A stretch of DNA of 64,000 nucleotides, taken from assembly GCA_964016885.1 (NCBI GenBank), contig OZ024747.1, positions 68,634,001-68,698,000 on the forward strand. The letters run 5' to 3'. Under the pieces are notes generated by a model. It worked only from the letters and a program-made list of their open reading frames with translations. It did not search any database and had not been told where the DNA came from. The position numbers and the translations under genes were made by a program. Of the stretch, positions 6,107 through 61,900 are shown piece by piece. This stretch comes from Eledone cirrhosa. Taxonomy: Eukaryota. Numbering within the stretch: position 1 is the stretch's first letter; each line of letters begins with the position of its first letter.

Positions 6107-6158
<52 letters not shown>

Positions 6159-6353
6159 GGAGATGTGGTAAGGAACCAGATGGACCATAACACACCAAAG
6201 TACTCAATACTTAGAGGGGTAATAGGAACGAGTAGGACCCCGATGGCTGAGCTCAAGCCGTTTCGACGGCTAATTCTGGACTAAAAAAAATTTTTTTAGT
6301 CCAGAATTAGCCGTCGAAACAGCTTGAGCTCAGCCGTCGGAGTCCTACTCGTT

Positions 6354-6392
<39 letters not shown>

Positions 6393-6576
6393 CGAAGGAA
6401 ATGTGGTAAGGAACCAGGTGGACCATAACGCACCAAAGTACTCAATACTTGAGGTAGTAGAGTGGGTAATAGGAACCAGTAAGACCCCGACAGCTGAGCT
6501 CAAGCCGTTTCGACGGCTAATTCCCTGAATTAGCCGTCGAACCGGCTTGAGCTCAGCTGTCGGGGTCTTACTGGTT

Positions 6577-6622
<46 letters not shown>

Positions 6623-28050: not shown

Positions 28051-31000
28051 GGTGTCACTTTTTGAAAATGTTCTTGTATTCGGTTATGCAGTTGGCATTT
28101 CACGGAACTGATGTAATTAGCTCTGCATGCACAGTTCAACTCATACACTACATGGTATCTCAGGCATATTGGTTTTGTATTATTATTGTAGCTAATTCCT
28201 GTGGTAGTATGTTCTCTGACAGGGTATCTCCAAAGACAGCAGGCGTCTTCTTCAATGTTCTGTGTGAGGTATTGTCTCAACATTCTTCCATGCTTTGTTA
28301 CTCACACTGAGAGGCCTGATTTTTTTATGTAACTTTGCAGGGAATTTTATGTCTGTTCTTCTTGGTATGGGAGATCAATGTAGGCCCAGGTTTTGTCTCC
28401 CATTTCTTTTTCTCCTTGGTGTTGTGTCTTTTGTCATTGTTGTTGGTTTGCAAGTGGTTGTGGTTGCTATTAGGACAAAGGTGGTGCTTGGTGTTGGCAT
28501 GTGGTGTTTTAGGCTTTGTGTATATGCTGAGTCTGGGTGGAGGAAGGCATCATAGTCTGCCAGTAACATTGTATCAACTAAAATATATGTATTTTTAGGT
28601 TATTACAATTTTTTAATATTTCATAATGATAGCTGGAAATGATTTGTTACATAAGCAGCAATTAACTTATATTTTGACTACAAAGATAATGAAATTGTTG
28701 AGACCACAGCGAGAATAGGAATTGATTTTTGTGTAGTAGAAACATGTGTTACCGTACAGCCAACAATTGCCAAGATTGACTATCACTATAAGTGTTATCA
28801 ACACTTCTGTAACATTAGGAAAATAAGGATAAAAGAGAGAAAAACTACAAAAAGAAAAGTTATATGTATATATATAACATTGTTGTAAAAAAAACAGCAT
28901 TGCAAAATATTTTTCCTTTCCTTAATCAGCAAATATTTTATGACTGGTCACAAATTCTACTAGAAACAACTTCAAAGAGAACTATAGCTGCATGCAAGAT
29001 ACATCATGAACCATTAAGAGTCACAATGTAAAAATAGAGCTAAAACACAATTGCCAAAATATAGAACTCTTTCCATAAAATATAAATGTCTATTATAAAC
29101 ACTCTATATCATGTTGTTGTCTTTAACATATATATATAAGCTATATATAACTTACAGACCATACATTTGAAAGTTGCCTGCTCCAGAACAATAGCTCATA
29201 CTTTCACCACAATCTACAGACTACTACAATCCTTATTTCTTACTCCCCGCCTCTAACACACATATGTGTATACATGTATTCATGTGTGTGTGTTAGTGTA
29301 TGTGTATGTTAGTGATGGGGACAGTCCATAAATCAGTGCATCAGATACAAACATCTTGTGGTATTTGATTTGTACTGAATTACTTCTCTTAGGTGGACAT
29401 AGAGATTGATAAAACGGTTAGCAGACAAAGTACTAGGGTCATTGAATTCCTTGGGAGTTAGTGCCTCAACTGGGTTGCTGTTCAGAGACTAAAACCAAGA
29501 AAAGAATTAGAAAAAAAGATTTTTATCTTGAATATCCAGATTGAGATATCACAGCTCCGATACTATAGGCATGTGGTTAGAATTTCTCAGGAAAGAATTG
29601 CTAGACAGATTTTAGGGGCGAAACTAACAAGTAGGAGACCCAACCAAGCAAGATGGTTGGCTAACATCCATGAGCTTGGTTGGTCACGCCTGGGGATCCA
29701 ACTGGATCAGTTGGAGACAGTTGCTTCTGACAGGACCCACTGGAGGGAGTGTTTGAGGACTGCCGTAATGACTCTCTCATGAATAAGTGAGCAAAGAAAA
29801 GGAGAAGATATTCTTTATTTGGAATCATGGAAGCTTATATACCTGCACTATACTTATATAAATTCATCTAAAAATGTTTGGCTATATAACTCTGTAGGTG
29901 ACAATTTGTATATAATAGTAAATTTGTAACTGGCAACTTTAACAAGGTATAACATTTTGTAATGGAACTTTTGTAGATGTGAAGGTTTTGTCTTAGTAAT
30001 AAAATTACTCTCCCCATTCCTCGTAAGATCTGAATTTATGAAAATTAGAACACAAATCACTGAGAATTTCTTGACTAGAAAAAGAAATGTTTGCCTCTGT
30101 CTGACAGCGAAGGTGACAAAAACTGTTGTTTTACAGCTCAATTCTATATTCTATTAAGCAACAACAGAAAAATCAATGAAACTGAATTTGCTTCCTATGT
30201 CAATGTTTCTGATGGCATGTTAAAATCATAAGCAAAAGTAAAATGAAGTAATTGCATTTTATTTAGAATTGCTTTCAGAAAGCATTTCAGAGTTGTCAGA
30301 ATAGATTAGTAGGTGTGATGCTTCATTGTTCAAATGATTGGTGAACTGCAAATTTGCCTTCAAGGAATGTCAATGTGTGTATGTGATGATATAAAATCAT
30401 TGTTAATCTCAAAACCAGCCTGAAAGAAGCTCAATTTAATTTTTCATTCCAATTCCATTTCATTTTAGAAGAAAAAAGTTTAAAGAATAAAATTAATTAA
30501 GTCATGATATGAAAAGTAAATTGTGGAGAAATCACATGGTAGAGAAGTGAGATTAGCTTGGTAGGTTCAAATCCACAGCATGTATTTTGTTGCATTTCTA
30601 AATAGGTTGTTTTCTATTCTATATTGTCTCAGTTCAGCTATTTGCTGGTTTAGGAATCGGATCATTCAGAAAATTTATTGAAGATAGTTTTAACTGCAAG
30701 AAAATGTATTCCTCATCTATTAACACTGGTCAGTCCGAGCTGAGGATCCGCATAAGGTGAAACAGTCATTCTCGGTATGGTGAACTAACTGTTGTGTAAC
30801 CATTTCTACCAAACTCGTCCCATGGACTGAGTGCTCTACCACTACGGATATTACCTTCCAGTGTTCTACTATTATATATATTATAAAGTTTAAAACAATC
30901 AAAACTATGTTCAATACATTTTATTGCTGACAATTGTTTCTTCCAAACAGCCGTTTGGAGTCATCGGAGCATTGGTAAAGTTTAAACACAAATTAAGTTC

Positions 31001-31389: not shown

Positions 31390-31421
<32 letters not shown>

Positions 31422-31567
31422 ATACTTTGGGAGGGTCATGTTGCCAATAAGAAACACATGCACCAGTTACTTTCACTTCAATTTATTATAATAAATTTAT
31501 AAATTTAGGAATTTATAAATTTCCGGTTGGTTGGTTGGTTCCACAACCAGATGGTTGTTTATATATT

Positions 31568-31610
31568 GTCAAAGTTCTTTCGTCACACACTCTGTGACCT
31601 CTTCAGTGAC
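31568..31610 (-). ncRNA. Minimal hammerhead motif in the PLE 3'UTR (left arm)
   Basis: Mirror copy of 34111-34153. Confidence 0.7.
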
Positions 31611-31812
31611 TGGGGATTCTTTTCTTTGTTTTTTGTGCCTCTCCTTTGTTCTGTCCTACGCCATCTTGTTTGTGTGTGTGTGTTGTGTGCTTAGTTTGCG
31701 CATGTGTTACATCCGGGTGTCTGTGTGTGTTTATATTCGTTTATTTATTTGTTTATTTACATGTTACTGGTTGGTTGTTTGTTCTATGTGCGTGTGTGTT
31801 TTCATTTTGTCC

Positions 31813-33162
31813 TTAATTGTAAGTTGTGATGTTGCTGTTCCACTCATGTTTTCTATTTAATTTTGGTTGTAATTCATTTATGTTTATTGCCTCTGTGATT
31901 TGTCTAAACATTGCGTCTTTTCTGTGTGTAGATTCTATTTTTATTTCTATGTTCTCTAATTTACCCTTATGTTCTATTTTAGCATGTTGGTAGAGTACAG
32001 ATGATTCTTTACTATCTTGAAGGTCTCGCCAGTGTTCATTTATCCGTTCCCCTATACTACAAGCTGTCTCACCTATGCACACTATATTTTTATCTCTACA
32101 TTGTCCTTCAGTACATCTTATGCTATATACTACATTTCTAGTTTTACAGTTAATATGGGGGCTTAATTTACAGATTATACATTTCTTATCTATACAGGGA
32201 GGTGTTTGAAAAGGGTATGTCTTGCTAATAAGTATTTTTATGGAGGTACCTGGCATTTCTACTATCTTAATATTGAGTTTATGTTTATCTAGGGCCCTTC
32301 TAAATTTGTAAGCTAATTCACCTCTAGGGGTTGTATCGATGAACATTACACTCTGGTATTTATTGCTATCATACCATGAGTTTATTCTATTAGCCTCATT
32401 CCTAGTTCTTTCTATTCTATTCCAAAATTTGCTCCTATACAAGGGGCAGGTCCCATTTATGTCATTATTTACCATTTTTTCCCATTTGGTTCTGGCTCCT
32501 CTATACACTCTGATTTTATCTCTCTGATTGTAACCAGAGAACTGCATACGGTGGATGAAGTGTTGTATGTGTCTCTCTAGTTCTTCGGGGTTGCACATAC
32601 GGGACATGTTTCTCATCACCCGTACCAAATCCGCAATCAGTATGTTGATTTTGGTATGGTCCGAAACAGCTGAGTTTCGGTGGATCAGATATTTGGAAGT
32701 CATGGGTTTGGCATAATGGGAATGGAGGATTTGTTTTTTGTTATTAATGGTATCTAACCAGAGCTCTGTGTCTAGTACAGGTAATCGATGGTTGGGGTGT
32801 TTGCTTGGGTAGTCTATAGTAACTCTAATACTCTGGTGGATGGAGTTAGCTATTTGCTGGATGCTTTCCATTGTGTTTTTCTCTAATTCCTGACTGTTCT
32901 CTAGTGGGGGTGTTTTAACTACGATGTTTATATCATCAACGTAGCGGGAATACATTGTCAGGGTTAAGGGGTCTTCTAATTGTTCTTTAAGTTTAAGTTT
33001 AAGTCTACTGTCCCACCATACCATGAATAAGTTAGCTATGTCGCCTGCAATGCTAACACCAATGGCTGCTCCCTCCTCTTGGGCATATGTTTTTCCATTA
33101 AATTTGAACATATGTTCCTTAAGGGTTAATTTTATGCTAGCCCCCACCGCATGTGCAATCAT
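31813..33162 (-). CDS. PLE reverse transcriptase (C-terminal part), Cys linker and GIY-YIG endonuclease; truncated
   Basis: EGAAIG, YSRYVDD, LPVLD, CxxxxCxxC linker, NVVYSIRC...IGET. YIG is mutated to CIG and R to C in this arm. Confidence 0.88.
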   Translation of the reverse strand: MIAHAVGASIKLTLKEHMFKFNGKTYAQEEGAAIGVSIAGDIANLFMVWWDSRLKLKLKEQLEDPLTLTMYSRYVDDINIVVKTPPLENSQELEKNTMESIQQIANSIHQSIRVTIDYPSKHPNHRLPVLDTELWLDTINNKKQILHSHYAKPMTSKYLIHRNSAVSDHTKINILIADLVRVMRNMSRMCNPEELERHIQHFIHRMQFSGYNQRDKIRVYRGARTKWEKMVNNDINGTCPLYRSKFWNRIERTRNEANRINSWYDSNKYQSVMFIDTTPRGELAYKFRRALDKHKLNIKIVEMPGTSIKILISKTYPFQTPPCIDKKCIICKLSPHINCKTRNVVYSIRCTEGQCRDKNIVCIGETACSIGERINEHWRDLQDSKESSVLYQHAKIEHKGKLENIEIKIESTHRKDAMFRQITEAININELQPKLNRKHEWNSNITTYN

Positions 33163-33170
33163 TTTCTTTA

Positions 33171-33908
33171 GTATGCAGTTCTCTGGTTACAATCAGAGAG
33201 ATAAAATCAGAGTGTATAGAGGAGCCAGAACCAAATGGGAAAAAAATGGTAAATAATGACACAAATGGGACCTGCCCCTTGTATAGGAGCAAATTTTGGA
33301 ATAGAATAGAAAGAACTAGGAATGAGGCTAATAGAATAAACTCATGGTATGATAGCAATAAATACCAGAGTGTAATGTTCATCGATACAACCCCTAGAGG
33401 TGAATTAGCTTACAAATTTAGAAGGGCCCTAGATAAACATAAACTCAATATTAAGATAGTAGAAAGACCAGGTACCTCCATAAAAACACTTATTAGCAAG
33501 ACATACCCTTTTCAAACACCTCCCTGTATAGATAAGAAATGTATAATCTGTAAATTAAGCCCCCATATTAACTGTAAAACTAGAAATGTAGTATATAGCA
33601 TAAGATGTACTGTAGGACAATGTAGAGATAAAAATATAGTGTACATAGGTGAGACAGCTCGTAGTATAGGGGAACGGATAAATGAACACTGGCGAGACCT
33701 TCAAGATAGTAAAGAATCATCTGTACTCTACCAACATGCTAAAATAGAACATAAGGGTAAATTAGAGAACATAGAAATAAAAATAGAATCTACACACAGA
33801 AAAGACGCAATGTTTAGACAAATCACAGAGGCAATAAACATAAATGAATTACAACCAAAATTAAATAGAAAACATGAGTGGAACAGCAACATCACAACTT
33901 ACAATTAA
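33171..33908 (+). pseudogene. Inverted duplicate of the PLE thumb/GIY-YIG region
   Basis: Intact VYIGETARS, but an extra A in the A-run near 33240 relative to the left arm. Confidence 0.85.
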
Positions 33909-34110
33909 GGACAAAATGAAAACACACACGCACATAGAACAAACAACCAACCAGTAACATGTAAATAAACAAATAAATAAACGAATATAAACACACACAG
34001 ACATCCGGATGTAACACATGCGCAAACTAAGCACACAACACACACACAAAAACAAGATGGCGTAGGACAGAACAAAGGAGAGGCACAAAAAACAAAGAAA
34101 AGAATCCCCA

Positions 34111-34153
34111 GTCACTGAAGAGGTCACAGAATGTGTGACGAAAGAACTTTGAC
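34111..34153 (+). ncRNA. Minimal hammerhead motif in the PLE 3'UTR (right arm)
   Basis: GTCA CTGAAGAG GTCACA GAATG TGTGAC GAAA GAAC TT TGAC. Confidence 0.7.
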
Positions 34154-34884
34154 AATATATAAACAACCATCTGGTTGTGGAACCAACCAACCAACCGGAA
34201 ATTTATAAATTCCTAAATTTATAAATTTATTATAATAAATTGAAGTGAAAGCAACTGGTGCATGTGTTTCTTATTGGCAACATGACCCTCCCAAAGTATA
34301 ACAATATCAGTTTCAACACACGTTTTCAGATAAAGAATCTTGCTAAACAAATTCAGAAACGAAATATATATATATATACATATATATATCATCATCATCA
34401 TCATCATCATCATCATTTAATGTCCATTTTCCACGCTAGCATGGGTCTGATATATATATATTTATATATATACATATATATATTTATCATCTACTTTGGC
34501 TGCTTACTGCAGAACTTAACAAATACTCCTGTATTATAAAGAATTCTGAAAAAAAAAGAGGTTTAATCATGGAGGTGATACTTTTATCACATTGTGGTGC
34601 CAAGATCAATATCTAATATAATGTTAGCCACACAAACAGTATATCTCTAATGGTCAAACTTTAAGATTCCAACTCTGGTAAGAAAAACCATTAGAATGCT
34701 AGCAAAGTAAGAAAAACTGCATATAACATCATAAATGATATATTCCTACAACAAAAGATGCAGTAAAAATAAGCTAATAACACCTCCAATGAAATTAAGA
34801 GAGAAAGCTAGATAGAGAGAATGGAAGAAAGAGAGAGAGACTAAGGGTGAGAGGGGAGAGAGAGATGGGGAAAGATATAAATAA

Positions 34885-35372: not shown

Positions 35373-35594
35373 CCAATGGACACAAATCAGTATTTTGAAA
35401 ATTTGGTCGAGTGTCAATTGTAATTAAAATCGAGTGATATAGCATTTTACGAACACCGGTTTTTAGACACACCGGACTAACGAAGCATTTGTTAATACTT
35501 TGAATAAACCCTATTGTACAGCTGATCATGTTACTCTTCACACATTTACTATATATATATATATATATATAAATATATATATATATATTTATAT

Positions 35595-38500
35595 ATTGGA
35601 ATAAATGCTCTGAAATAGCGATATATATGTGAATATAGACATAGGATATTCGAAAATATTCTGTATGTTTATAATAAACATTTTGAAGACCTAATCGCTA
35701 TAGAATAGAATACGTCACGTATTACAATTAGATTCTCGATAAAAGCAAGGGAAGTAATCTACGCGTTTCATTCTCGTTAGAAATCATCAGGACTACATAT
35801 CCAGTGCTTTTATCGAGAATGACACAGCTAGAGACTTATAGAATACTTAGCTGTGTACAGGAACTGGTTTGAAAGAGCGGTTGCCGGTCCGGCAGAAATT
35901 AGAAATTGGAATAAATGCTCTGAAATAGCGATATATATGTGAATATAGACATAGGATATTCGAAAATATTCTGTATGTTTATAATAAACATTTTGAAGAC
36001 CTAATCGCTATAGAATAGAATACGTCACGTATTACAATTAGATTCTCGATAAAAGCAAGGGAAGTAATCTACGCGTTTCATTCTCGTTAGAAATCATCAG
36101 GACTACATATCCAGTGCTTTTATCGAGAATGACACAGCTAGAGACTTATAGAATACTTAGCTGTGTACAGGAACTGGTTTGAAAGAGCGGTTGCCGGTCC
36201 GGCAGAAATTAGAAATTGGAATAAATGCTCTGAAATAGCGATATATATGTGAATATAGACATAGGATATTCGAAAATATTCTGTATGTTTATAATAAACA
36301 TTTTGAAGACCTAATCGCTATAGAATAGAATACGTCACGTATTACAATTAGATTCTCGATAAAAGCAAGGGAAGTAATCTACGCGTTTCATTCTCGTTAG
36401 AAATCATCAGGACTACATATCCAGTGCTTTTATCGAGAATGACACAGCTAGAGACTTATAGAATACTTAGCTGTGTACAGGAACTGGTTTGAAAGAGCGG
36501 TTGCCGGTCCGGCAGAAATTAGAAATTGGAATAAATGCTCTGAAATAGCGATATATATGTGAATATAGACATAGGATATTCGAAAATATTCTGTATGTTT
36601 ATAATAAACATTTTGAAGACCTAATCGCTATAGAATAGAATACGTCACGTATTACAATTAGATTCTCGATAAAAGCAAGGGAAGTAATCTACGCGTTTCA
36701 TTCTCGTTAGAAATCATCAGGACTACATATCCAGTGCTTTTATCGAGAATGACACAGCTAGAGACTTATAGAATACTTAGCTGTGTACAGGAACTGGTTT
36801 GAAAGAGCGGTTGCCGGTCCGGCAGAAATTAGAAATTGGAATAAATGCTCTGAAATAGCGATATATATGTGAATATAGACATAGGATATTCGAAAATATT
36901 CTGTATGTTTATAATAAACATTTTGAAGACCTAATCGCTATAGAATAGAATACGTCACGTATTACAATTAGATTCTCGATAAAAGCAAGGGAAGTAATCT
37001 ACGCGTTTCATTCTCGTTAGAAATCATCAGGACTACATATCCAGTGCTTTTATCGAGAATGACACAGCTAGAGACTTATAGAATACTTAGCTGTGTACAG
37101 GAACTGGTTTGAAAGAGCGGTTGCCGGTCCGGCAGAAATTAGAAATTGGAATAAATGCTCTGAAATAGCGATATATATGTGAATATAGACATAGGATATT
37201 CGAAAATATTCTGTATGTTTATAATAAACATTTTGAAGACCTAATCGCTATAGAATAGAATACGTCACGTATTACAATTAGATTCTCGATAAAAGCAAGG
37301 GAAGTAATCTACGCGTTTCATTCTCGTTAGAAATCATCAGGACTACATATCCAGTGCTTTTATCGAGAATGACACAGCTAGAGACTTATAGAATACTTAG
37401 CTGTGTACAGGAACTGGTTTGAAAGAGCGGTTGCCGGTCCGGCAGAAATTAGAAATTGGAATAAATGCTCTGAAATAGCGATATATATGTGAATATAGAC
37501 ATAGGATATTCGAAAATATTCTGTATGTTTATAATAAACATTTTGAAGACCTAATCGCTATAGAATAGAATACGTCACGTATTACAATTAGATTCTCGAT
37601 AAAAGCAAGGGAAGTAATCTACGCGTTTCATTCTCGTTAGAAATCATCGCTATAGAATAGAATACGCGTTATACGCGTTTCATTCTCGTTAGAAATCATC
37701 GCTATAGAATAGAATACGTCACGTATTACAATTAGATTCTCGATAAAAGCAAGGGAAGTAATCTACGCGTTTCATTCTCGTTAGAAATCATCAGGACTAC
37801 ATATCCAGTGCTTTTATCGAGACTACATATCCAGTGCTTTTATCGAGAATCTAATTGTAATACGTGACGTATTCTATTCTATAGCGATTAGGTCTTCAAA
37901 ATGTTTATTATAAACATACAGAATATTTTCGAATATCCTATGTCTATATTCACATATATATCGCTATTTCAGAGCATTTATTCCAATTTCTAATTTCTGC
38001 CGGACCGGCAACCGCTCTTTCAAACCAGTTCCTGTACACAGCTAAGTATTCTATAAGTCTCTAGCTGTGTCATTCTCGATAAAAGCACTGGATATGTAGT
38101 CCTGATGATTTCTAACGAGAATGAAACGCGTAGATTACTTCCCTTGCTTTTATCGAGAATCTAATTGTAATACGTGACGTATTCTATTCTATAGCGATTA
38201 GGTCTTCAAAATGTTTATTATAAACATACAGAATATTTTCGAATATCCTATGTCTATATTCACATATATATCGCTATTTCAGAGCATTTATTCCAATTTC
38301 TAATTTCTGCCGGACCGGCAACCGCTCTTTCAAACCAGTTCCTGTACACAGCTAAGTATTCTATAAGTCTCTAGCTGTGTCATTCTCGATAAAAGCACTG
38401 GATATGTAGTCCTGATGATTTCTAACGAGAATGAAACGCGTAGATTACTTCCCTTGCTTTTATCGAGAATCTAATTGTAATACGTGACGTATTCTATTCT

Positions 38501-38866
38501 ATAGCGATTAGGTCTTCAAAATGTTTATTATAAACATACAGAATATTTTCGAATATCCTATGTCTATATTCACATATATATCGCTATTTCAGAGCATTTA
38601 TTCCAATTTCTAATTTCTGCCGGACCGGCAACCGCTCTTTCAAACCAGTTCCTGTACACAGCTAAGTATTCTATAAGTCTCTAGCTGTGTCATTCTCGAT
38701 AAAAGCACTGGATATGTAGTCCTGATGATTTCTAACGAGAATGAAACGCGTAGATTACTTCCCTTGCTTTTATCGAGAATCTAATTGTAATACGTGACGT
38801 ATTCTATTCTATAGCGATTAGGTCTTCAAAATGTTTATTATAAACATACAGAATATTTTCGAATAT
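35595..38866. repeat. 310-bp tandem array with one hammerhead per unit (retrozyme-like), internally inverted
   Basis: Units start at 35595, 35905, 36215, 36525, 36835, 37145 and 37455. Scrambled junction at 37649-37850. About 3.3 reverse-complement units follow to 38866. Flanked by (TA)n. Confidence 0.95.
38072..38160 (+). ncRNA. Representative array hammerhead (also 38382-38470, 38692-38780 on +; 35732-35820 and every 310 bp to 37370, plus about 37735-37822, on -)
   Basis: ATTCTCGATAAAAGCA..GTAGTC CTGATGA TTTCT AACG AGAAT GAAA CGCG TA GATTAC..TGCTTTTATCGAGAAT. Predicted cleavage after GUA at 38132. Confidence 0.88.
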
Positions 38867-38897
38867 ATATTTATATATATATACACACACACATATA

Positions 38898-39722: not shown

Positions 39723-39750
39723 CACATATATATATATATATATTGTTATA

Positions 39751-39896
39751 TATTGTTATACTTTGGGAGGGTCATCTTGCCAATAAGAAACACACGTGTG
39801 TTTCTTATTGGCAACATGACCCTCCCAAAGTATAACAATATCGGTTTCAACACACATTTTCAGATAAAGAATCTTGCTAAACAAATTCAGAAACAA
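39751..39896. mobile_element. Fold-back mini-derivative of the PLE terminus
   Basis: Same two termini as 31415-34364, but the hairpin is centred on CACACGTGTG. In (TA)n. Confidence 0.85.
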
Positions 39897-39931
39897 AATA
39901 TATATATGTATATATATATATATCTCTCTCT

Positions 39932-47585: not shown

Positions 47586-48280
47586 TGACCCCTTCTTTCT
47601 TATATATATATATCAGAATGAAGTAACAGAGTCAGAAACTCACGCTAGTCCCTGTAATTCATGAGCTCAAAGGAAAAAGAATCCTGGGCTCTACAAATAT
47701 AATATAGAGAAGAAAACACTAGAGTGTGTGTGTTTATCAAGTTACAGGGAATACCACTAGTGTATGGAACCGAGTTTGTACATGTGTGATATATAGTTAT
47801 AAAGATGGGTTCTGTCATTTTAATTTATATTTTTAATTATAATGTATCTGACTCACCTTTCTAAGTTTATATGTTCCATATGCTAGTGGTATTCCCTGTA
47901 ACTTGATAAACACACACTCTCTCTAGTGTGTTTTCTTATCATCATCATCATCATCACCGTTTTTACGTCCGTTCTTCCATGCTAGCATGGGTTAGACGGG
48001 TTGTCCTGTTGTGGGCAGTGTCTGGTCGGCTGACCATGCCTTGCTCATACAGGAACTGATTTGGCTTGATTTCTACAGCTGGATGCCCTTCCTAACACCA
48101 ACCTCATTTACAGTGAGTGCTGGGTGCTTTTTTGCCGTGGCACCTACACGACCACTTTACAGTGGAATGATATGGACCCCAGTCCCTATCATCTCATTTC
48201 TACAGCTGAGTAAACTGGAGCAATGTGAAATAAAGTGTCTTGCTCAAGGAAACAACACATCACCCGGTCTGTGCCTCCAT

Positions 48281-49491: not shown

Positions 49492-50403
49492 AGGCTATGA
49501 AGCCAGTCCCGGTAAAATAGACTCCCAGGCTACTTAGCTGGTAAGAGTGTCAGACACCATGAGTTGTGGCCTGAGTTAAGACAATTGTTAAGACAATTTA
49601 AAATCTTTTCCAACATCCAATTGTTAAAAAACAAGTTAATATCATTTAGTCATCATCTTATTATAATTCTGCTTGTGTTTCGTCCATTCGTAACATATGT
49701 TACACTTTAATTATATACACACACATCTACTGAGTTACATACACACACATCTACTTAGTTACATACACACACATCTACTTAGTTACATACACACACATCT
49801 ACTGAGTTACATACACACACATCTACTTAGTTACATACACACACATCTACTTAGTTACATACACACACATCTACTTAGTTACATACACACACATCTACTG
49901 AGTTACATACACACACATCTACTTAGTTACATACACACACATCTACTTAGTTACATACACACACATCTACTTAGTTACATACACACACATCTACTGAGTT
50001 ACATACACACACATCTACTTAGTTACATACACACACATCTACTTAGTTACATACACACACATCTACTTAGTTACATACACACACATCTACTGAGTTACAT
50101 ACACACACATCTACTTAGTTACATACACACACATCTACTGAGTTACATACACACACAGCTACTGATCTCAAAGGCTTAAGAATTTTAGCAGAAAGGTAAA
50201 TATTTTCGAAATTAGGAATTTTAGCAGAAAGTCACGATTTGGGTTAAAGATAGTCATTACCTGGGTTCTAAAACACTATTTATTATTTTGTGGTAAAATA
50301 AGCTTCCGGGACCCCAGCTAGAGTTGTGTCGTTTCGGGGTTTACTGGTAAAATAAACTTAAAAAGCCTGTTTGTCTATTTTGCCAGGACCGGCTATGTAG
50401 CCT
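49492..50403. mobile_element. Unclassified TIR element containing a minisatellite
   Basis: Imperfect TIR of about 31 bp: AGGCTATGAAGCCAGTCCCGGTAAAATAGAC / GTCTATTTTGCCAGGACCGGCTATGTAGCCT. Confidence 0.6.
49714..50164. repeat. 24-bp minisatellite (TACACACACATCTACT[T/G]AGTTACA), about 18-19 copies
   Basis: Direct reading. Generates the (YIHTHLLS)n ORF. Confidence 0.95.
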
Positions 50404-57879: not shown

Positions 57880-60800
57880 TCATCATCATCATCATCAGGT
57901 TTAGCGTCCGTGTTCCACGCTTGCATGGGTTTGGACGGGGGTTTTCCCACTTGAGGCAAGAGTGGTTGTCTTGCTCGCATAGGACTGTCTGGCGGGTTTT
58001 CTACAGTTGGATGCCCTTCCTAACACCAACCACATTTACAGTGTGGGGCTGGGAGGTTTTTACCGTGTTGCCTACACGGCCACATTTACAGCGTGGACTG
58101 TGTGTTTTTTGTCGTGACACCTACACGATCTCATTTGTTTCGGCCTGGATGTTGTGGGACCAACATAACTTTACATTGAAAGGGGCGGTGTGGGTGGGGT
58201 GGAGGTGGTGGGACGGGGGTGTGTTTTGATAGAGATGCCTACTGACTGTAGTAGGTTTTTACTTTGTATTTAGGTAAGGCGGGTCTTCTCTATTACTGAG
58301 TACCGCCAAAGGTCTCGGTCCAGTGACATTGTCTTGGAGAGGTGTAAGCGTGTGAGGTCGGAATTTATCAGCTCGTCCCATGTTTTTCTGGGTCTGCCTA
58401 CTCCGTGGCTACCGTCTATCTTTATTGCCCTGCACTTTGTTATACAGCTGTCGTCTTTCATGCGCATCACGTGACCGTACCAACGTAGCCTTCTCTCGAG
58501 TAAACAACATCTGATCCCTCTTATTTCTAATTTTTTCCTTAGTTCGTTTATGCTTTGCCGTTCACGTATATTACTATTGCACATCCAGCGGAGCATGCAA
58601 GCTTCGTTCCTCTCTAGTCTGCGTATATCCTCTGCACACAATGCCCAGGTCTCACTGCCATGCAGCATTGCTGTTCGTATGCAGGCATCGTATAACCTGC
58701 CTTTCATTTTTAGGGAGAACCCTCTAGCGGCTAATAGTGGTATAAGCTCTCTGAACTTTTTCCATCCAGTTCTGACTCTAGCTACTGTACTTTCAGAGCA
58801 CCCTCCCCCACTGCTGATTTTGTCACCCAGATAACGGAAGCTGTACACTATTTCTATAGAACCCTCTGCGCAGTTGAAGGAGCTAGTATTTTGTGGGCAC
58901 TTGCTGCTACTTATTGCACCAGAGCACCGGCCACATGTAAAATCTATGTTCTTAGTTAGCTTACCTGTGATCCCACTACATCTTTTATGCACCCATACTT
59001 TGCATTTGGGACATAAAATGGAGTTTCTACCTACACCTTTCCTACACACTGAGCATGGCCATTTCCCAGATGGGACCGCCACCTTATTTTCTTTCCTACA
59101 AACTAGAACTTTAGTCTTAGCCAGGTTAATTTTAAGGCCTTTTGATTCTAGGCCGTGCTTCCATGTTTGGAATTTCTTCTCTAGTTCGGTCATTGATTCA
59201 GCTATGAGCGTTAGATCATCTGCGTATAGGAGTTCCCATGGGCAGCCGGTCTTGAACTCCTCTGTTATAGCCTGAAGGGCAATAATAAATAGTAGGGGGC
59301 TAAGAACAGAGCCCTGATGGACACCAACTTTTACGCTAAACTCTTCACTATATTCGTTGTTAATTCTAACCTTACTGACTGTTTCTTTATACATGGCTTG
59401 TATAGCTCTCACAAGCCATTCGTCAACACCTAGTTTTCTAAGAGACCACCAGATAATGGAACGGGGGACTCTGTCGAAGGCTTTCTCCAAGTCGACGAAA
59501 GCTAAGTATAGGGGTTTACTTTTAGCTAGGTACTTCTCCTGTAGTTGTCGTACAATGAAAAGAGCGTCTGTGGTACTTTTGCCTGACACAAACCCGAACT
59601 GCATTTCATCTAGATCAATTCTCTCTCTGATTAGTTGCGCTATTACTTTTTCCGTGACCTTCATGACCTGGTCGATTAATTTAATGCCTTTATAGTTACT
59701 CCTATCTAGGGCATCTCCTTTTCCCTTATAGCAGTTAACGATGATGCTGCTACGCCATTCCTTCGGAACAACCCCATTCTGTACGACTTGGTTAACTATC
59801 CGGGTGACCATGGTGTGTCCCACCGAACCAGATGCCTTCAGCATCTCAGCAACTATTTCCGAAGGCCCAGCCGCCTTACCCGTCTTCATATCTTTGATTG
59901 CCTTACTTATTATACTACCTTCAACTAACACTGCTGGTCCCTCTATTGGATCGATCTGGGGGAGACTGTCTTTCTCCCATTTGTTCTCCTCATTTAGAAG
60001 CCTTTCGTAGTGACACTTCCAAGCTACCTTCTTATCAGCGTCGGTGATGGCAAGTATGCCATCATCGTTAAGTACACACTTCTCCCCGACAATATCACGG
60101 TTTTCCTTGACACATTGCCTGGCAATCCTGAACACCTCACGTTTTTGGTCCTCACGTTGTAGAACATGCTTGAACTTTCTTTCCTCTGCTTCCCTTCTTG
60201 CGAAGTACACTTGTCTCCTAGCTTCCCTCCTGGCCACTTGATAGTCTTCTCTACTTCCCCCATCCCGCCATACTTTCCAAGCCTGCTTTTTGGCCTTAAT
60301 TGACTTCTCCACCTTACTGTTCCACCACCATGTTACTCTCCTCCTACCTACAGGCCTGCTCCAGCCACAGACTTTGTCTGCCGCCGTCAGCAGGTTTGCT
60401 CTCAGGAATTCCCACTGTTCCTCTATATTATACGACTCTAATTGCTCTTCCTTACTGTCGAAAGCGTCAAGTAATATGCTTTGAAATTTATTTCTGGCTA
60501 TGGGGTCCTTTAGCTTCCATATTTTTCTCCTGAGGATAGTCCTCTTCCGCTGTCTAGTACGTCTCGTCCTGACTATGAGGTCGCTAATTATCAGTCTATG
60601 TTGGGAGGTGAATTCTTCATGGGGGAGGGATTTAGTGTTTACAACAGACACTCTGTCACGTCTTCTGGTAAGGATATAATCTACCTGGCTTGTGTGTTCC
60701 CCCGATCTATAGGTGATCAAGTGATTGTCTCGTTTTTTGAAGTTAGTGTTACAGATAGTTAAGTTATTTGCGTCGCAGAATTCCAGGATTCTGGAGCCTT

Positions 60801-61900
60801 CCTCATTTCTAGTACCGAACCCATAGCCTCCATGGATTCCGTCATAGCCGTCACAATGTTGTCCAACATGACCATTTAGGTCGCCTGCAATAACTATATA
60901 GTCACTGTCGGTTATTTGGGAGGTAGCGAGCATCAGTGTCTCGTAGAATCTGTCTTTTATAGCGCCGGGCAGTCCGGATTGGGGTGCGTACGCAGATATT
61001 ACTGTCACCGTAGTTTTATTGAGGACAAGTCTTATTTTAATTATTCTGTCGTTCACTCTATTTACGTCTATTATCTTATCTGCCCACTTTTCTGCTACCA
61101 TGATTCCTACCCCACCCAACCCATTGTCATTTCCCACCCAGAAAAGCTTATAGCATCGTTCTTTACCCACGATGAATCTAGCCGACCCGACCCTCCACCT
61201 GGTCTCTTGAATACAACAAACATCGACCTCCTTACGTTCAAGCATTTCTACAACCTCGTTAGAGCGACCCTTTAAGGTGCCTACATTCATGGTACCAACT
61301 CTGAAGTTTTGGATTGCGTTTGGAGGGTGGGAGCGGTGGGGCGCGGGGGGGGGGGGATGGGGTTATGTTAGCCATCCTGGGCCGAAACAAGGAGGAGTGC
61401 TTGCATTCTCGTCCACGAGGTGAATTTTGCTTTATCTTTGGCATTGTCGCTGAGCGTCCACATATTTCTCTCTTCAACTCTCCAGAATTCCGTAGTCCAT
61501 CCATCATATCGAAAAGCAACCAGTTAAGCGATAGTATGGGCCTCTGACTTATGATTGGTCCACGTAATAATGGTGGTGCGTGGGGGCGGGAGGGAGGGAT
61601 GATGGGTTGTTAGCGAGAATGTAAGGTTTAAGATAAGATCGCCGTATTTTGGGCATAATTTAACAATAAACGAAAATACAAGATTTGTTTTGTTTAAGAA
61701 AATACGATAAAGAAAATGCGGTGATAGGGAAAATATGATTTTTAGAGAAAAGATATGATATAGAATGGTGAAAATATGATATAGTGTGAAATTAGGACAT
61801 AGAAGTGATTGAATGAATGGGTTCGAATGGAGAGAAGAATCGAGAAAAATTTTGAACGTTACTTTATACCGAAGGAACCGAAGGGAACAGCCATCCCAGA
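57880..61900 (-). mobile_element. Near full-length RTE-clade LINE (5' boundary uncertain)
   Basis: Uninterrupted APE+RT ORF, 3'UTR of about 390 bp with (GAT)n tail, long 5' leader. No clear TSD found. Confidence 0.93.
58270..61290 (-). CDS. RTE ORF: APE endonuclease, reverse transcriptase and PHD-like finger
   Basis: APE motifs NVGTL, CIQET, SAYAPQ, GDLNGHVG, QVDYIL, SQHRL. RT motifs QFGF, FVDLEKAFDRV, GVHQGSVLSPLLF, YADDL, FRYLG. RTE tail RRLRWYGHV...GRPRKTW. Confidence 0.96.
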   Translation of the reverse strand: MNVGTLKGRSNEVVEMLERKEVDVCCIQETRWRVGSARFIVGKERCYKLFWVGNDNGLGGVGIMVAEKWADKIIDVNRVNDRIIKIRLVLNKTTVTVISAYAPQSGLPGAIKDRFYETLMLATSQITDSDYIVIAGDLNGHVGQHCDGYDGIHGGYGFGTRNEEGSRILEFCDANNLTICNTNFKKRDNHLITYRSGEHTSQVDYILTRRRDRVSVVNTKSLPHEEFTSQHRLIISDLIVRTRRTRQRKRTILRRKIWKLKDPIARNKFQSILLDAFDSKEEQLESYNIEEQWEFLRANLLTAADKVCGWSRPVGRRRVTWWWNSKVEKSIKAKKQAWKVWRDGGSREDYQVARREARRQVYFARREAEERKFKHVLQREDQKREVFRIARQCVKENRDIVGEKCVLNDDGILAITDADKKVAWKCHYERLLNEENKWEKDSLPQIDPIEGPAVLVEGSIISKAIKDMKTGKAAGPSEIVAEMLKASGSVGHTMVTRIVNQVVQNGVVPKEWRSSIIVNCYKGKGDALDRSNYKGIKLIDQVMKVTEKVIAQLIRERIDLDEMQFGFVSGKSTTDALFIVRQLQEKYLAKSKPLYLAFVDLEKAFDRVPRSIIWWSLRKLGVDEWLVRAIQAMYKETVSKVRINNEYSEEFSVKVGVHQGSVLSPLLFIIALQAITEEFKTGCPWELLYADDLTLIAESMTELEKKFQTWKHGLESKGLKINLAKTKVLVCRKENKVAVPSGKWPCSVCRKGVGRNSILCPKCKVWVHKRCSGITGKLTKNIDFTCGRCSGAISSSKCPQNTSSFNCAEGSIEIVYSFRYLGDKISSGGGCSESTVARVRTGWKKFRELIPLLAARGFSLKMKGRLYDACIRTAMLHGSETWALCAEDIRRLERNEACMLRWMCNSNIRERQSINELRKKLEIRGIRCCLLERRLRWYGHVMRMKDDSCITKCRAIKIDGSHGVGRPRKTWDELINSDLTRLHLSKTMSLDRDLWRYSVIEKTRLT

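Follow-up and report, generated by a model that had tools for sequence, protein, structure and literature searches.

The seam between the two arms of an inverted array of 310-bp units, found in the 64-kb stretch of DNA analysed here (hereafter the window), is probably the place where two cDNAs met, both made by a Penelope-like reverse transcriptase (RT) from one retrozyme RNA and each primed on one strand where a (TA)n tract had received a staggered cut. Judging from its sequence, the array appears to be a real, young insertion belonging to a new non-LTR retrozyme family with ends of the Penelope-like element (PLE) type, and the seam is the centre of this one young insertion in (TA)n. Units are numbered on the plus strand, with 35595-35904 as unit 1-310, and the two arms are as follows.

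35595-37648, minus strand: left arm, 6.6 identical 310-bp retrozyme units; predicted ribozyme-sense RNA on the minus strand, directed outward
37835-38866, plus strand: right arm with 3.3 units, all identical; ribozyme sense directed outward on the plus strand; no mirror of the seam scramble

All repeat copies are identical over both arms (0 mismatches), the right arm being a perfect inverted array of 1,032 nt, and the zero differences among copies indicate one very young event. The array has a GC content of 0.34-0.35 and contains no ORF of at least 120 aa; an autonomous PLE encodes both an RT and a GIY-YIG nuclease, and the array, being non-coding, is not itself a PLE. Its surroundings in the window appear to be animal DNA and are AT-rich and microsatellite-rich, with LINE fragments. 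They include an uninterrupted 1,030-aa LINE ORF at 58270-61362 (minus strand; endonuclease, RT and PHD-like finger), to which fragments at about 17.2-19.7 kb, 35.2 kb, 39.3 kb and 55 kb are related, a 50-nt inverted repeat (94%) with a 102-nt spacer at 47721-47922, outside (TA)n and possibly a small TIR element, and a 24-bp minisatellite at 49707-50163 (19 copies, 96% matches).

A motif scan located the hammerhead motif in 10 places of the array, where stems I, II and III measure 6 bp, 4 bp and 2 bp, stem III being palindromic; the canonical metazoan type I hammerhead, as given in the available part of PMC4209133, has a helix I of about 6 bp, a helix II of about 4 bp and a helix III of 1-2 bp with a palindromic loop. 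One complete copy was delimited on the right arm.

38072-38160, plus strand: one complete type I hammerhead (motif scan, predicted fold of the domain with z = -3.5, hammerhead consensus)
38072-38087/38145-38160, plus strand: its 16-bp extension, from the fold
38096-38101/38133-38138, plus strand: its stem I, with the core from 38102

We take the predicted cut to lie between 38132 and 38133 (unit 166/165), following the hammerhead consensus. The extension is built from a 16-mer at unit 138-153 that recurs reversed at unit 211-226, the two pairing as a continuation of stem I in the predicted fold. This is the longest inverted repeat of the unit, the next longest being 9 bp, and the duplex of the piece at unit 197-226 has a predicted energy of -30.5 kcal/mol. 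At the gathering score Rfam gave no match in the 64-kb window, array hammerheads included, and an exact 33-nt ribozyme pattern gave none in the metagenome contigs. Since 8 of 9 predicted Xenopus dimers were uncleaved (excerpt of bioRxiv 10.64898/2026.07.22.740005), self-cleavage of the predicted hammerhead is not to be assumed. No RNA run is among those listed as containing words of the seam, which speaks neither for nor against an expression as linear and circular monomers. Two loose hammerhead-like motifs lie outside the array, at 30740 and 63472 (both on the plus strand), and may be due to chance.

The array resembles the metazoan non-LTR retrozymes described in the accessible text of PMC7229834 in its tandem non-coding unit (310 bp here, 150-450 bp in the class), its GC content of about 35%, its single type I hammerhead per unit, a probable long target-site duplication (TSD), a high copy number and the presence of PLEs in the same genome. 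The summed contig depth of the tandem joint of the unit reaches 27,442 in run X1, a value that is not a copy number but from which the family can be said to be very abundant. In contrast, the published metazoan retrozymes are, in the same text, direct tandem arrays only, with no head-to-head arms, tails or junction anatomy, and the word 'inverted' does not occur there. The part of PMC9977147 at hand holds nothing on retrozyme junctions, and a literature search found no report of inverted retrozyme arrays or of their junction anatomy, subscription papers and supplements (such as Figure S9 of PMC7229834) lying outside the search. No homology of the array to the pLTR of PLEs was found within the 64-kb window.

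Contigs were mapped on one unit from 4 of 24 listed runs, of which X21 yielded 0 reads, X1 and X2 being from one sample, which is possibly the assembly's own. Unit position 51 is a G in 7/7 copies of the left arm and 3/3 of the right (35645 and equivalents), whereas it is an A in all of the contig depth of X1 and X4 and in all but 6 of 489,850 in X2. Contigs drop rare variants, and the G at position 51 is below the depth expected of a multi-copy variant (none in X1, depth 6 in X2). The presence of this private G in both arms fits one template molecule that was read repeatedly. Such repeated reading of a circular retrozyme RNA by an RT, giving tandem cDNA, has been proposed for metazoan retrozymes (PMC7229834; bioRxiv 10.64898/2026.07.22.740005, both cited from excerpts). 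The G could alternatively stem from a donor array that was small and uniform, or from an error in the consensus. The private G directly adjoins the phase of the right outer end. In X4, a run labelled as another organism, a single 340-nt contig, mapped on 35864-36173, spans the complete unit in circular form, with position 51 as its sole difference; it may come from a close relative, from shared material or from transfer.

Between the arms, the stretch 37455-37850 could be rebuilt letter for letter from pieces of the unit. The array ends at unit 194 (37648), jumps to unit 100 at an ATC and continues through the pieces below.

37646-37666, minus strand: seam piece 1, unit 100-120, entered via ATC
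37663-37671, minus strand: seam piece 2, unit 166-173, entered via TACG and followed by one untemplated A
37672-37700, minus strand: seam piece 3, unit 166-194, with a blunt start at the predicted cleavage end
37698-37822, minus strand: seam piece 4, unit 100-224, entered via ATC, crossing the predicted cleavage site intact
37821-37850, minus strand: seam piece 5, unit 197-226, entered via GA; covers the 5' strand of the extended stem I in full
37835-37850, unstranded: pivot, the 16-bp stretch common to both arms and the longest inverted repeat of the unit
37592-37607, plus strand: orphan arm of the stem (unit 138-153), lying in the truncated seventh unit; its predicted partner is 37835-37850 (0.89-1.0)

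The initial annotation had described repeated jumps within the unit at ATC, TACG, ATC and GA, a duplication and a change of strand inside 37835-37850. All four jumps were recovered by the reconstruction, together with a fifth, homology-free junction at 37670-37672 that had been missed; the duplication is the 26-nt one at 37795-37848, made by piece 5, and the strand change does fall in the 16-mer of the stem I extension. The A at 37671 matches neither adjacent base of the unit. Both ATC jumps are the same 194-to-100 junction and lie inside a 52-bp tandem duplication, and they may thus be one event that was copied. Relative to all random jumps on the unit, the summed microhomology is 12 nt over the 5 jumps (P = 0.005), or 9 nt when 4 jumps are counted (P = 0.016).

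Three of the four distinct jump landings fall on landmarks of the ribozyme: unit 166, where the cut is predicted, is hit twice and unit 197, the first base of stem I, once. The TACG through which piece 2 is entered would form the final 4 nt of the RNA after the predicted cleavage, and piece 3 covers the core loop and halts 2-5 nt short of stem I. The breakpoints at 100, 120 and 173 are no hammerhead landmarks. In post hoc calculations with two landmarks and a local range of 128 nt, P is 0.0004 for four landings or 0.012 with the two at 166 merged; it is 0.006-0.05, equally post hoc, when all piece ends are counted, and 0.03-0.5 with ten landmarks over the local range. A test of whether the breakpoints are paired was discarded as uninformative, 59% of the predicted circle being paired. 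The proposal that template switching took place on the structured ribozyme is therefore sustained as far as the microhomology above chance and the landings at 166, 166 and 197 are concerned; these landings, which the initial annotation had not pointed out, are the best sign of a link to the ribozyme fold. A cleaved molecule cannot have been the sole template, because the piece at unit 100-224 crosses the cut site intact. The same seam pieces can also be read in reverse, as the stuttering of a DNA polymerase in the loop of a folded cDNA. The homology-free landing at what would be a free RNA end favours an RT as maker of the seam. According to the available part of PMC8857657, the jump of the R2 RT to a new template needs an untemplated addition, mainly of A; the seam shows a blunt landing that resembles this, after one A, at the predicted 3' end of a cleaved RNA.

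The further claim, that stalling on the structured RNA caused the inversion, was not upheld. Switching on a sense RNA keeps the orientation, and a change of strand needs cDNA as template or partner. A random strand change has a homology of at least 16 nt with P = 0.00035. Because the 16-mer is the only inverted repeat of the unit longer than 9 bp, a join at this place is expected with or without a stall. Moreover, the window contains four further head-to-head insertions with one-sided tails, all in (TA)n, listed here.

31414-34362: family A, large copy; head-to-head truncated Penelope-like element in (TA)n (RT/GIY-YIG-like ORF, architecture)
39750-39899: family A, small copy; 46-nt arms, no spacer, plus tail; outer ends as in the large copy
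6157-6358 and about 6392-6581: family B, a pair of adjacent miniatures sharing a (TA)n tract; their tails measure about 65 and 75 nt

The three small insertions have 0, 1 and 3 nt between their arms at the pivot and no long stem, from which it follows that inversion needs no ribozyme stem. The stem thus likely did not cause the inversion of the array but is the place where two cDNAs can anneal.

These neighbours share recurrent outer ends: both ends recur in 2/2 copies of family A, and the short-arm end recurs in 2/2 copies of family B. In the large copy, 621 nt of the left arm are missing from the right arm and the tail of the right arm is missing from the left. Neither arm can then be a fold-back of the other, since each has sequence that the other lacks, and two primings can give such a structure. 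Between the two arms of this copy, 12 of 1,137 positions are different, a 1-nt indel among them. Pfam assigned no family to the 457-aa ORF of this copy, and GIY-YIG or RVT_1 occurs in 12-23% of the members of the nearest Atlas clusters. We take the ORF to belong to a PLE from its visible motifs of the C-terminal half of an RT and of a GIY-YIG-like domain, from the Atlas clusters and from the architecture of the insertion. A cysteine cluster lies upstream of the GIY-YIG-like domain, and the element is Neptune-like by the description in the excerpt of PMC8557442 only. A hammerhead-like motif was seen by eye near 34115, in the 3' region of this element, and was missed by the motif scan.

Both outer ends of the array likewise abut (TA)n, and the 16-nt suffix of the left flank equals the prefix of the right flank, in register, in the TA tract.

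35581-35596, plus strand: probable left TSD copy (10-16 bp), end of (TA)n; its last 2 nt overlap the array
38863-38878, plus strand: probable right TSD copy; its first 4 nt overlap the array
35595-35645, minus strand: one-sided tail of 51 nt, unit 1-51; the left outer end is at unit 1 and the right outer end at unit 52

Five of the 606 TA-like 16-mers of the window (both strands) equal this word, both flanks included; a TSD of 10-16 bp is probable but not certain, as the word is present at three other places of the window. The one-sided tails of the four neighbours measure about 54-77 nt. When the tails of the retrozyme and of two neighbouring insertions were folded, no recognisable common structure appeared among them, and the unit gave no BLAST match to the ends of the neighbouring PLEs or to any other part of the window outside the array. 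Among the best 12 of 70 loose ends in the contigs, (TA)n is met at unit 304, 306 and 309 (4 contigs), which supports a preferred start near unit 1; the commonest (TA)n end among these 12 lies before unit 27 (14 contigs), and an end at unit 52 is absent from them. The seven mismatches at 35931-35955 in one contig, which could be read as (TA)n abutting unit 52, were discounted as diverged copies could match them.

These borders bear on a later origin of the inversion, in which a replication fork stalled and switched template at the hairpin of an array that was initially direct. Tandem arrays with hairpins are plausible stall sites, and fork template switching typically gives microhomology jumps and local duplications. 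This scenario is nevertheless improbable: there is one strand change only, while a later inversion or inverted duplication needs a second junction or mirrored flanks, the right arm borders directly on a distinct flank in which the left target is repeated, and the zero differences among copies point to one very young event.

The borders and the contigs also bear on an artefact of assembly or library preparation, such as a chimeric fold-back read or a mis-joined array. Neither the pivot nor the 26-nt duplication nor the ATC jumps appear among the joints listed for X1 and X2, where depth is low and junction contigs are short, and the strand-change joint is absent among those listed for any run, junction contigs again being short. 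Of 216 31-mers in 37619-37864, 121 are specific to the seam; from this interval 22 words were sampled, of which X1 contains 14 and X2 12, while X5, from the same sample, and three other runs contain 8. An artefact would account for these absences, for the incomplete recovery of words in the two best runs and for a private base below its expected depth. Against it, the joint from unit 120 to unit 166, with the same five letters between, is present in contigs of both X1 (depth 5.4) and X2 (depth 2.65), and the word excess of these two runs over X5 probably consists of seam words. In a fold-back chimera, mirror copies of the seam and of the left flank would be expected, but none is seen, and the TSD-like flanks and the tail match real neighbours. 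We thus regard an artefact as highly improbable.

Head-to-head inversion is the usual outcome of PLE insertion, whose hallmarks are an inverted arm, a junction overlap of about 15 bp, a tail and a microsatellite target (PMC3846280 and PMC8557442, in the parts available). The array is like these insertions in its inverted, 5'-truncated arm, its junction overlap of about 15 bp, its one-sided tail, its probable TSD of about 10 bp and its (TA)n target. It differs from them in its non-coding multimeric cargo, in having both arms several units long, in a tail of 51 nt instead of the 30-40 nt published, and in a seam with five extra template switches that are in part tied to the ribozyme fold. The inversion is ordinary for a PLE product and the pivot follows from homology. 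A purified PLE protein nicks and extends both strands, and its reverse transcription starts internally at two sites that bound the tail (excerpt of PMC11167929).

A second known system of inverted arms is the twin priming of L1, which retains the TSD and shows microcomplementarity at the join (PMC11702581), with template-switch variants also described (bioRxiv 10.1101/2024.08.27.596794), both as given in the excerpts available. The array would share with it one RNA primed at both target ends, cDNA ends joined by short complementarity, a probable conserved TSD and extra switched pieces at the join. In contrast with L1, there is no poly(A) at either end and no L1 nuclease site, and both primers would start internally; the arms also overlap fully, unlike those of L1, because the template would be repeated or circular. 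The array would thus be a case of twin priming in its mode of formation, without being a product of L1.

In the mechanism that we consider probable, the GIY-YIG nuclease of a PLE would cut both strands of the (TA)n target 10-16 nt apart, and the RT would start internally at unit 1 and unit 52, that is 51 nt apart, with one start per target strand. Both syntheses would circle repeatedly on one circular monomer, or run along a uniform multimer, and their products would be the 6.6 and 3.3 copies that share the private base. The end of the left cDNA would then be released and re-primed five times on a template of sense polarity before joining, with the hammerhead fold setting several of the breakpoints. 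Two of these re-primings would occur onto the predicted self-cleaved 3' end, one by 4-nt pairing and one blunt after the untemplated A, and synthesis would halt just before stem I and re-enter at its first base. Finally, the two 3' ends would anneal at the 16-mer, followed by fill-in and ligation. The two first-strand cDNAs have antisense polarity, which confines pairing between them to inverted repeats, and a pivot on the 16-bp stem, the only inverted repeat of the unit above 9 bp, is thus expected under twin priming. The fact that the right arm does not mirror the seam speaks for this mechanism. Against it, there is one event only, and the left arm contains the whole of the right arm.

Since the left arm contains all of the right arm, the array is also compatible with a snap-back, under which one would equally expect the pivot to lie on the 16-bp stem. 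Here a single target-primed cDNA would have made the left arm and the seam, and its 3' end (37835-37850) would have paired with the orphan stem arm at 37592-37607; DNA-templated synthesis back along the cDNA would then have given the right arm, with 4 nt serving to join it to the target. The scheme resembles the self-priming model of PMC3846280 as well as the idea of the initial annotation. In the available text of that paper, PLE junctions are explained by self-priming and not by twin priming, and palindromes at inverted PLE junctions and a 15-bp overlap are reported. A snap-back also predicts exactly the right arm that is observed, free of the scramble, and a private base shared by both arms. 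The predicted plus-strand DNA fold gives the nested pairing it requires with a probability of 0.89-1.0; the first copy of the 26-nt duplication already occupies the nearer arm, which leaves 37592-37607 as the partner. A fold-back on the nearest hairpin (partner 37736-37751) was rejected, as the right arm would mirror the scramble after 38 nt, which is not seen. However, a snap-back would make the right end an arbitrary stop, yet this end lies 51 nt in phase from the left one, like the tails of the neighbours; by hand arithmetic, an offset of 30-80 nt in 310 has a chance of about 16%. Furthermore, the large neighbouring PLE at 31414-34362 cannot arise in this way, and the PLE protein extends both target strands in vitro (PMC11167929, as excerpted). 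A snap-back is thus the less likely of the two, though a serious rival, and we retain twin priming by a Penelope-like RT as the probable origin of the seam.

One seam by itself is a lead, and joining driven by homology would already be expected to give its most visible feature, the pivot on the 16-bp stem. Of more value are the tie of the seam to the predicted cut site and the base private to the array, which together make a testable case of an RT at work on a single, refolding ribozyme RNA. The integration of retrozymes, their RNA circles, the enzyme involved and the inversion of PLEs are left unsettled by the papers in the parts available (PMC7229834, PMC8557442, PMC11167929). Should two fixed starts, private variants extending over whole arms and seams at the cut site prove to be routine in arrays of this family, the matter could be tested from one long-read genome. 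We tentatively consider it possible, though rather doubtful, that the array is the record of a single molecule, in which a PLE RT dimer rolled round one retrozyme circle from both target strands while the hammerhead refolded and cut its template; the private base of all ten copies would then mark the one circle, and the seam would record two jumps of the RT onto a 3' end made by the ribozyme. If this reading is true, the array would attest directly, in genomic sequence, to the circular intermediate as well as to the PLE partner put forward in 2020, twin priming would be the source of PLE head-to-head insertions, and ribozyme cleavage would act during integration.
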